Below are positions 23,274-24,105 of a stretch of DNA of 64,000 bases, one piece after another. Origin of the DNA: a phage; the sequence record PV946933.1; one strand, given 5' to 3'. A model generated the notes under the pieces. It saw nothing but the letters and a program-made list of their open reading frames with translations. It was not told where the DNA came from and searched no databases. The position numbers and the translations under genes are program-made. Numbering within the stretch: the stretch's first letter is position 1; each line of letters begins with the position of its first letter.

Positions 23274-23346
23274 TGGGAATTAGCCAAGTTGGTAAGGCAT
23301 AGCATTTTGACTGCTAGATGCAAAGGTTCGAGTCCTTTATTCCCAG
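23274..23346 (+). tRNA. tRNA-Gln (anticodon UUG)
   Basis: Cloverleaf readable: acceptor tgggaat/attccca, anticodon stem tagca/tgcta, loop ttTTGac, T-arm GGTTCGAGTCC; CCA not encoded. Confidence 0.8.
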
Positions 23347-23347
23347 C

Positions 23348-23434
23348 GCGAGAATGGTCAAATTGGTAAAGGCACAGCACTTAAAATGCTGCGGAATGAT
23401 TTCCTTGTGGGTTCGAGTCCCACTTCTCGCACCA
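23348..23434 (+). tRNA. tRNA-Leu (anticodon UAA)
   Basis: Acceptor gcgagaa/ttctcgc, loop ctTAAaa, long variable arm, T-arm GGTTCGAGTCC, CCA encoded. Confidence 0.8.
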
Positions 23435-23439
23435 AATTT

Positions 23440-23513
23440 GCGGATATCGTATAATGGCATTACCTCAGACTTCCAATCTGATGATGTGAGTTCGATTCTC
23501 ATTATCCGCTCCA
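23440..23513 (+). tRNA. tRNA-Gly (anticodon UCC)
   Basis: Acceptor gcggata/tatccgc, anticodon stem tcaga/tctga, loop ctTCCaa, CCA encoded. Confidence 0.8.
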
Positions 23514-23523
23514 ATTTAATTTA

Positions 23524-23597
23524 CTCCGTGTAGCTCAGTTTGGTAGAGCGCCTGATTTGGGATCAGGAGGTCCAAGGTTCAAATCCTTGTATGGAGA
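23524..23597 (+). tRNA. tRNA-Pro (anticodon UGG)
   Basis: Acceptor ctccgtg/tatggag (two GU pairs), anticodon stem cctga/tcagg, loop ttTGGga, T-arm GGTTCAAATCC; CCA not encoded. Confidence 0.75.
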
Positions 23598-23599
23598 CT

Positions 23600-23689
23600 G
23601 GAGGCGTGGCAGAGTGGTTTAATGCACCGGTCTTGAAAACCGGCAGTCGCTCCGGCGACTCATAGGTTCAAATCCTATCGCCTCCGCCA
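23600..23689 (+). tRNA. tRNA-Ser (anticodon UGA)
   Basis: Acceptor ggaggcg/cgcctcc, anticodon stem ccggt/accgg, loop ctTGAaa, long variable arm, CCA encoded. Confidence 0.8.
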
Positions 23690-23694
23690 GTTTT

Positions 23695-23770
23695 GCTGAT
23701 TTAGCTCAGTAGGTAGAGCAACTCACTTGTAATGAGAAGGTCGGCGGTTCGATTCCGTCAATCAGCACCA
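23695..23770 (+). tRNA. tRNA-Thr (anticodon UGU)
   Basis: Acceptor gctgatt/aatcagc, loop ctTGTaa, T-arm GGTTCGATTCC, CCA encoded. Confidence 0.8.
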
Positions 23771-23771
23771 A

Positions 23772-23846
23772 GGCCCTGTAGCTGGAAGGTTCAAGCAAGC
23801 GACTCATAATCGCCAGATGGTGGTTCAATTCCACCCAGGGCCACCA
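23772..23846 (+). tRNA. tRNA with CAU anticodon (most likely tRNA-Ile read as AUA after C34 modification, as in T4; tRNA-Met not excluded)
   Basis: Acceptor ggccctg/cagggcc, loop ctCATaa, T-arm GGTTCAATTCC, CCA encoded. Confidence 0.7.
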
Positions 23847-23859
23847 AATTAAGAATTAA

Positions 23860-23946
23860 GGGGAGTTATCCCGTAGAGGTAGCGGTGTGGACTGTAAATC
23901 CATTGTCATTGCGACTCGGGTGGTTCGACTCCATCACTCCCCACCA
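23860..23946 (+). tRNA. tRNA-Tyr (anticodon GUA), class II with long variable arm
   Basis: Acceptor ggggagt/actcccc, anticodon stem gtgga/tccat, loop ctGTAaa, variable stem-loop, T-loop ttcgact, CCA encoded. Confidence 0.7.
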
Positions 23947-23950
23947 ATTT

Positions 23951-24025
23951 GGATGTGTAGCTCAATGGCAGAGCGATCGCCTGTTAAGCGATTGGTTATA
24001 GGTTCGAATCCTATCACGTCCGCCA
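23951..24025 (+). tRNA. tRNA-Asn (anticodon GUU)
   Basis: Acceptor ggatgtg/cacgtcc, D-stem gctc/gagc, anticodon stem atcgc/gcgat, loop ctGTTaa, T-arm GGTTCGAATCC, CCA encoded. Confidence 0.75.
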
Positions 24026-24029
24026 AATC

Positions 24030-24105
24030 CGAGGCATAGCTCAGAAGGAAGAGCAAGGACCTTCTAAGTCCTGGGTCGTAGGTTCGATCCCTACTGCCTC
24101 GACCA
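24030..24105 (+). tRNA. tRNA-Arg (anticodon UCU)
   Basis: Acceptor cgaggca/tgcctcg, anticodon stem aggac/gtcct, loop ctTCTaa, T-arm GGTTCGATCC, CCA encoded. Confidence 0.8.

Follow-up and report, generated by a model that had tools for sequence, protein, structure and literature searches.

A ten-gene tRNA cluster in a T-even phage as the segB-free, RB3/T2L-type form of the tRNA operon

Phage T4 encodes eight tRNAs and two stable RNAs in its tRNA region, with neither a tRNA-Tyr nor a tRNA-Asn among them, and a cluster of ten contiguous tRNA genes that includes both therefore raises the question of whether the T4 set has been enlarged or whether the operon exists in another form. The cluster in question spans positions 23274–24105 (832 nt, plus strand) of a 64,000-nucleotide stretch of phage DNA, sequence record PV946933.1, that was analyzed over its full length and is here called the window. 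We conclude that the locus is very probably the segB-free, RB3/T2L-type tRNA operon of a T-even (Tequatrovirus) phage. The ten-tRNA arrangement is an ordinary variant of the T-even tRNA operon and is already known rather than new, because the T2L, RB1 and RB3 regions were published in 2008 by Brok-Volchanskaya et al.

ARAGORN, run on the whole 64 kb window, finds exactly ten tRNA genes between 23274 and 24105 and none outside this interval. All ten reach the curated gathering score of 29 bits of the Rfam tRNA family (RF00005), nine of them at 59–74 bits and tRNA-Tyr, at 30.2 bits, marginally. In order along the plus strand they are tRNA-Gln (UUG; 23274–23346, 65.5 bits), the class II tRNA-Leu (UAA; 23348–23434, 59.3 bits), tRNA-Gly (UCC; 23440–23513, 63.3 bits), tRNA-Pro (UGG; 23524–23597, 66.8 bits), the class II tRNA-Ser (UGA; 23600–23689, 62.6 bits), tRNA-Thr (UGU; 23695–23770, 72.9 bits), a tRNA with a CAU anticodon (23772–23846, 59.9 bits), the class II tRNA-Tyr (GUA; 23860–23946), tRNA-Asn (GUU; 23951–24025, 74.1 bits) and tRNA-Arg (UCU; 24030–24105, 65.8 bits). 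The original prediction, made from the sequence alone, had named these ten tRNAs, with these anticodons and in this order, and two independent methods agree with it; it had also proposed covariance scores as a check on the Tyr and Asn candidates, and both lie above 29 bits. Its statement that tRNA-Gln and tRNA-Pro lack an encoded CCA holds on direct reading of the sequence: tRNA-Gln ends in CCCAG followed by a single C, with tRNA-Leu immediately after, and tRNA-Pro ends in GGAGA followed by CT and then tRNA-Ser, while the other eight genes all encode CCA. Across the window there are nine occurrences of the T-loop motif GGTTCRANTCC, compared with a chance expectation of 0.14; eight lie within the cluster and one in the homolog of the T4 stable RNA C gene (rnaC) downstream of it. 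Several sub-threshold Rfam matches within the cluster (Plastid-ycf2 on the minus strand, sX4, YrlA, tRNA-Sec and ST7-OT3_4) score well under their gathering scores and overlap the tRNAs, and we treat them as cross-matches to tRNA-like structure.

Comparison with T4 (NC_000866, 70.9–72.5 kb) locates the difference between the two loci. The flanks match, with the trna.2–4 open reading frames (ORFs), the middle promoter, the rnaD and rnaC genes and the terminator present in both, and the first six tRNA genes are identical or near-identical (tRNA-Gln 72/73, tRNA-Leu 87/87, tRNA-Gly 73/74, tRNA-Pro without a difference). The tight spacing of tRNA pairs is shared as well, the Gln-Leu, Pro-Ser and Thr-CAU gaps being 1–2 nt in the window as in T4. 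A comparison of gene junctions shows that tRNA-Ser is followed by UAA in T4 where the window encodes CCA, a contrast likewise noted between T2L and T4 (PMC2330249). Homology to T4, already present upstream of the cluster, breaks off within the CAU gene at position 23791 and picks up again at 24472, at the 5′ end of the rnaD homolog. In between, T4 has another tRNA-Ile(CAU) allele that lacks CCA, then segB, then another tRNA-Arg allele; the CAU and Arg genes of the window match the T4 tRNA-Ile and tRNA-Arg genes at just 47/74 and 51/75 positions and are different alleles. At the level of sequence, the difference from T4 is thus best described as a swapped block, with CAU, Tyr, Asn and Arg genes and a 116-aa ORF (ORF116) in place of Ile-segB-Arg, and not merely as two added genes, because the CAU and Arg alleles differ too. 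The original prediction had described the contrast as one between eight T4 tRNAs and a cluster to which Tyr and Asn are added; both genes are indeed extra relative to T4, and the description is correct as far as it goes, but it leaves out the exchanged CAU and Arg alleles. The idea that Tyr and Asn might be the counterparts of T4 stable RNAs C and D was rejected, as clear homologs of both stable RNA genes sit downstream of the cluster at 24469–24728.

The window locus has the features of the RB3/T2L type: it lies between the trna.2 ORF and rnaD/rnaC, it is accompanied by the conserved middle promoter and terminator, and it carries a Met/Ile(CAU)-Tyr-Asn-Arg module instead of the Ile-segB-Arg of T4. 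Sequencing of the T2L, RB1 and RB3 tRNA regions showed that segB is missing and that there are "four extra tRNA genes" (Met, Tyr, Asn and Arg) and ORFs without known function (PMC2330249), and the T2L primer sequences given in that work match the CAU, Asn and Arg genes of the window and the start of ORF116. RB3 (EMBL AJ884578; NC_025419), with which RB1 is grouped as segB-free, has the identical ten-tRNA order, contiguous and with rnaD and rnaC downstream, and its CAU-to-Arg module is 98.5% identical to that of the window. It differs in that rnaD follows tRNA-Arg directly, whereas the window has ORF116 between them and two extra ORFs past the terminator. T2/T2L (EMBL AJ880101; AP018813) also lacks segB and has identical CAU, Asn and Arg genes, a tRNA-Tyr with one difference and the same 116-aa ORF after tRNA-Arg, but a 133-aa ORF (phrog_16521) takes the place of tRNA-Thr and leaves it with nine tRNAs. 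Phages ime09 and vB_EcoM_P8 have the same ten tRNAs and the 116-aa ORF. A large group of relatives, among them ECO07P2 and wV7, has clusters of 11 tRNAs that keep the ten genes and their order but are interrupted between Asn and Arg by an insertion of 190 bp, consisting of a 114-nt spacer and a tRNA-His(GUG) (ECO07P2, 2427–2620 of the compared stretch).

The arrangement is widespread. The window locus is 98–99% identical to many Tequatrovirus genomes, and 274 records of the phage collection cover at least 80% of positions 23100–24500. The CAU-Tyr-Asn-Arg module is covered to at least 80% in 378 phage records, and the Asn allele of the window occurs at 95% identity or more in about 352, the spacer with tRNA-His in 216 and full-length segB in 126.

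What, then, is the direction of change between the two forms? The preferred site of SegB has been mapped experimentally to a 27-bp sequence that is contained entirely in tRNA-Asn of T2L, opens with GGTTCRANTCC, closes with CCAR and is set apart from the corresponding tRNA-Ser site by G6, A16, G18, A26 and A27 (PMC2330249). The window tRNA-Asn gene is identical to that of T2, and at 24001–24027, at its 3′ end, lies the sequence GGTTCGAATCCTATCACGTCCGCCAAA, which is unique in the window and has the GGTTCRANTCC core, a CCAA end and all five diagnostic bases. By these published sequence criteria, the window tRNA-Asn is predicted to retain an intact preferred SegB target. T6 (AP018814; Chihara et al. 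2026) presents an arrangement intermediate between those of the window and T4. Its tRNA-Tyr is identical to that of the window at 85/87 positions and occupies the same place after the CAU tRNA, but segB sits exactly where Asn is found in the window, giving the order CAU-Tyr-segB-Arg with T4-type CAU and Arg alleles. T6 and the window cease to be homologous precisely at the first Asn base, from which T6 has a leader and segB. By annotation T6 has seven tRNAs, Pro and Ser being absent.

In T4 × T2L co-infections, SegB-dependent conversion removes about 1250 bp comprising the Met, Tyr, Asn and Arg genes and two ORFs, and the authors of that work regard segB as recently acquired by T4 (PMC2330249). 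These observations lead us to view the window as the uninvaded recipient allele and the eight-tRNA state of T4 as derived: a segB cassette would have taken the place of Asn, which is also the case in T6, and T4 would have lost Tyr and the local CAU and Arg alleles to it as well. The opposite polarity, in which the T4 cluster was recently expanded to ten genes through a novel gain of Tyr and Asn, is what the original prediction implies and follows naturally from taking T4, with its eight tRNAs, as the reference genome, yet we consider it extremely improbable. Four genes of the 3′ module differ from T4 and not two, the module is commoner than segB-bearing clusters (378 against 126 records), the SegB target is intact in the window while T6 has segB in the place of Asn, and it is SegB that replaces the module in crosses between T4 and T2L, in keeping with the authors' view of segB as a recent arrival in T4.

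The window itself appears free of such an element. ORFs that overlap the cluster in a program-made list are at most 75 aa long, and the three longest (23318–23533 on the plus strand, 23314–23514 and 23934–24161 on the minus strand) have no Pfam or PHROG match. A tblastn search of the window with T4 SegB gave no homolog, just a chance match with an E value of 2.3. A homing endonuclease hidden in or around the cluster was also considered and rejected, given that the three longest overlapping ORFs match no family and that ORF116 and the two ORFs past the terminator are without a nuclease domain. The earlier claim that no homing-endonuclease ORF interrupts the cluster therefore stands.

Because tRNA-Tyr scores so much lower than its neighbors, its status as a gene requires separate consideration. 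A permissive scan reports it under the tRNA-Sec family with 34.4 bits, below that family's threshold of 47. The low score in the tRNA model is attributable to the D-stem, in which U10·G25, C11-G24, C12·C23 and C13-G22 face each other, so that one of the four positions is a C·C mismatch. These properties, 30.2 bits against a threshold of 29 and a mismatched D-stem, together with the omission of tRNA-Tyr from the RefSeq record of ime09 and from several other annotations, are what one would expect if gene finders were by chance calling a pseudo-tRNA in decay. However, the family of sequences matching tRNA-Tyr comprises 1390 phage records, with identities to the window gene of 96–97% in rV5-like Vequintavirus, about 87% in FelixO1-like phages, about 84% in T5-like phages, about 81% in Klebsiella T4-like phages and about 78% in Enterococcus phages; E. 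coli tyrU is 70% identical. We aligned eleven sequences that represent nine phage groups and E. coli tyrU. Pairing holds in 100% of cells for the acceptor, anticodon and T helices, in 97% for the variable stem and in 64% for the D-stem. Fourteen pairs have changed on both sides, a number reached in none of 500 shuffles (0/500), and slid registers are only ~50% paired. The mismatch itself, C12·C23, is kept in all ten phage sequences, including that of T5, and the adjacent 11-24 pair covaries, from C-G to U-A in T5.

The relatives provide experimental support as well. The T6 tRNA-Tyr has been detected by northern blot, and the PtuAB nuclease of Septu cleaves it at C48 in the variable arm (PMC13096335); it also has a rescue phenotype, described below. 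According to the T5 record, the tRNA-Tyr homolog of that phage can be converted into an effective amber suppressor. Covariation and these published T6 and T5 data support a functional tRNA-Tyr in the window and make the pseudo-tRNA reading very unlikely. Identity elements of tyrosyl-tRNA synthetase are present in the gene in the form of A73, the GUA anticodon and a long variable arm, and T6 and T5 have the very same 15-nt variable arm. "Canonical", the word applied to both tRNA-Tyr and tRNA-Asn in the original prediction, is nevertheless the wrong one for this phage-type tRNA-Tyr allele, given its marginal 30.2 bits and a C12·C23 mismatch conserved across its family; that the gene is present is confirmed.

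The CAU tRNA had been left as either Ile or Met, and the choice can now be narrowed. Aligned without gaps, it matches E. coli ileX, a tRNA-Ile with a CAU anticodon, at 58/75 positions (77%), including an identical 15-nt stretch of the anticodon stem-loop, GCGACTCATAATCGC, whereas alignment with metT and metU yields 49/70 matches and needs gaps. Its acceptor stem, GGCCCUG...CAGGGCC, contains the C4:G69 and C5:G68 pairs of ileX in place of the U4:A69 and A5:U68 pairs of metT, and C4:G69 and C5:G68 are major identity elements for E. coli TilS (PMC11947777). With a G1-C72 pair, it is not an initiator tRNA. Codon usage was counted in the 82 non-overlapping ORFs of at least 80 aa in the window (54 kb) and compared with approximate, not computed, E. 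coli K-12 codon frequencies, which makes the ratios approximate as well. On this measure AUA is enriched 2.9-fold, and more than 4-fold in late genes, while AUG, at 0.93, is not enriched. The late genes are the minus-strand ORFs at 760–18109, taken to be baseplate/tail genes on the strength of gene order in T4 and of homology at the edge of the block. The CAU tRNA is thus probably of the Ile2 type and, judged by its likeness to ileX and its TilS identity pairs, would read AUA after lysidine formation. It is of the RB3/T2 allele and not the T4 tRNA-Ile allele, as tRNA-Arg is of the RB3/T2 allele. Most database records label the gene tRNA-Met and a few label it tRNA-Ile. The CAU tRNA also departs from the nearly universal A14 and A21, having G14 and C21, and shows an A27·C43 mismatch; close relatives keep all these features. 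A further mismatch kept in close relatives is A27·A43 of tRNA-Thr; the T4 gene has C27-G43 there.

What might the ten tRNAs do for the phage? The window has a G+C content of 35%, and each of the ten cognate codons shows enrichment over E. coli: AGA 5.1-fold, AUA as given above, UCA and GGA both 2.8-fold, AAU 2.6-fold, ACA 2.4-fold, UAU 2.2-fold, UUA 2.0-fold, CAA 1.5-fold and CCA 1.4-fold. The bias is stronger in the minus-strand ORFs at 760–18109, where, per 1000 codons, 73 specify Asn (about 39 in E. coli) and 49 specify Tyr (about 29), so that the comparison of late-gene codon usage with the host, suggested as a check at the outset, comes out in favor of codon supply. The ten tRNAs would then top up the host pool for codons that an AT-rich phage over-uses. 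His codons are under-used in the window, which fits the lack of a tRNA-His there.

A second function has been demonstrated for relatives of tRNA-Tyr. When amplified or over-expressed, the T6 tRNA-Tyr neutralizes Septu; T4, which has no tRNA-Tyr, cannot escape, and T2 is resistant (PMC13096335). A counter-defense role of the T5 tRNA-Tyr has also been published (PMC11555353), plating on hosts with the defense system having been restored in both T6 and T5, and its variable arm is the cited reason for which it resists retron-Eco7 (PMC13096335). The allele family to which the window gene belongs would accordingly be one that replenishes tRNA-Tyr destroyed by the PtuAB nucleases of Septu and retron-Eco7, as shown in T6 and T5, and by analogy tRNAs of the window phage may have a role in defense evasion. 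A comparable argument may be made for tRNA-Asn. The PARIS nuclease AriB requires a UAAU motif, and a change of U39 abolishes its cleavage of tRNA-Lys (PMC12409363). The window tRNA-Asn has C31-G39, and hence UAAG at U36-A-A-G39, where E. coli asnT has A31-U39 and UAAU; as C31-G39 removes both the motif and U39, the window tRNA-Asn could be resistant to AriB.

These considerations can be extended to the accessory 3′ module as a whole (the Ile2-like, Tyr, Asn and Arg genes, plus His in sister genomes), which would then serve mainly in anti-defense and not in codon supply, replacing or out-titrating host tRNAs cleaved by PtuAB in the case of Tyr and by AriB of PARIS in the case of Asn and Thr. 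The rescue of T6 from Septu by a tRNA-Tyr identical at 85/87 positions speaks for this extension, as do the variable arm shared with T5, G39 of tRNA-Asn against U39 of the host, the spread of the Tyr allele over unrelated phage families and the tRNA-His of the 11-tRNA relatives, for which codon demand does not account. Yet Septu EcB88 cleaves the T6 tRNA-Tyr too, so that protection works by dosage and is only partial in wild-type T6; no known defense system depends on Asn alone; the rescue of T4 from PARIS needed no T5 tRNA-Asn; and Tyr and Asn codons are strongly enriched, so that codon supply explains both genes equally well. We regard a mainly anti-defense module as a possibility of some substance but on balance doubtful. 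Codon supply combined with a Tyr-specific anti-defense role is likely the better account of these sequences and the one we rank highest. A number of points weigh against what we propose. Besides resting on an approximate, not computed, host codon table, codon supply does not explain the tRNA-His of close relatives and fails to explain T4, which manages without Tyr and Asn. The tRNA-Tyr clears the general covariance model threshold by only 1.2 bits with its mismatched D-stem, and Chihara et al. call its T6 counterpart relatively unstable (PMC13096335). Finally, ORF116 lies inside the transcription unit without a known role.

The two threads may also be tied together, in that the 3′ module would be at once an anti-defense cassette (Tyr against PtuAB, an AriB-resistant Asn) and the preferred landing site of SegB. 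The Tyr part of this proposal is already published for T6; the whole, assembled from sequence comparisons, is speculative and we think it unlikely.

The cluster is embedded in what appears to be a single transcription unit. A candidate MotA-type middle promoter (TGCTTTA, 12 nt, TATTAT) was identified by pattern match at 23180–23204 (plus strand), upstream of tRNA-Gln. In the window 14 sites fit the pattern where 2.4 would be expected, and the copy upstream of tRNA-Gln shows no change among T4, T2 and T6. A scan for sigma-70 promoters returned 5 sites compared with 6.1 in shuffled sequence, and because this is no excess it was left unused, the MotA-box pattern being the pertinent one. At the other end, a strong intrinsic terminator with a 10-bp G+C-rich stem and a T-run lies at 24779–24811 (plus strand) and is kept in T4. 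In T4, the middle promoter of the tRNA operon is located just upstream of the cluster and the primary transcript ends after species I RNA (PMC2330249). By homology, the ten tRNAs, ORF116 and stable RNAs D and C of the window would be co-transcribed from the promoter at 23180–23204 to the terminator at 24779–24811. As T4 homology suggests, host RNase P would cleave the precursor, host nucleases would trim it, and the host CCA-adding enzyme would supply the CCA of tRNA-Gln and tRNA-Pro. Classical work on T4 established dimeric precursors, RNase P cleavage and CCA repair.

ORF116 occupies 24122–24472 (plus strand), between tRNA-Arg and the rnaD homolog, and belongs to phrog_3355 (E value 3e-54), a family of unknown function; it has no Pfam match, is present in T2, ime09 and vB_EcoM_P8 and is absent from RB3 and T4. 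Where tRNA-Arg and rnaD are separated by 1 nt in T4 and RB3, ORF116 intervenes in the window. The homolog of stable RNA D (species 2) lies at 24469–24583 (plus strand) and is just 72% identical to T4, its central part being replaced by a divergent sequence, while the homolog of stable RNA C (species 1), at 24590–24728 (plus strand), is 97.8% identical. Within the latter, the sequence CCGGGTTCGAATCCCGG is a perfect T-arm of tRNA type, with the SegB core motif at 24706–24716 as part of it.

A terminator hairpin cassette that occurs three times (24782–24811, 25340–25369 and 26027–26056) brackets two ORFs at 24856–25329 and 25455–26018. Both belong to phrog_2280, a PHROG of unknown function, and have similar start regions, and T4 has neither of them between rnaC and e.8. 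This two-ORF stretch looks like a modular insertion by way of repeated regulatory cassettes. The two ORFs, of 157 and 187 aa, were considered as recent paralogs, a relationship that was rejected: in spite of the common PHROG, BLASTP similarity is confined to the first ten residues.

Individual tRNA alleles of the cluster recur in unrelated phages. Genes about 97% identical to CAU and Tyr are present, in a different gene order, in rV5-like Vequintavirus phages (FFH2, 822–1634 of the compared stretch), and the Tyr genes of T5-like and FelixO1-like phages, 84–87% identical, have an identical variable arm. Such sharing across unrelated phage families implies that tRNA genes have been exchanged horizontally one at a time. 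The Asn allele differs in this respect, occurring in Tequatrovirus alone. With sister genomes included, T-even phages would have as extra tRNAs those for Tyr, Asn and His, three of the four tRNAs with GUN anticodons, and all four are queuosine-modified in E. coli.

Database annotation of these clusters is uneven. The RefSeq record of ime09 (NC_019503, 2675–3503 of the compared stretch) omits tRNA-Tyr, although ARAGORN finds it, and places the remaining nine tRNAs on the wrong strand, and in several other records the whole cluster is unannotated or the CAU tRNA is labeled Met. That tRNA-Tyr is often missed, the CAU tRNA usually mislabeled as Met and the ime09 tRNAs misplaced are problems that deserve to be flagged.

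As a discovery the locus carries little weight, the cluster having been mapped in 2008 and recurring in hundreds of Tequatrovirus genomes. It is usable, however, as a clean "empty-site" allele of a homing endonuclease target, and it illustrates that T4 is not representative of its own genus in tRNA content. Were the 3′ module both a defense-evasion cassette and the landing site of SegB, SegB invasion, as in T4, would strip a phage of tRNAs that help it evade host immunity. The forward-looking angle is tRNA-Asn, which, like tRNA-Tyr, may offer T-even phages a means to evade tRNA-cleaving immunity.

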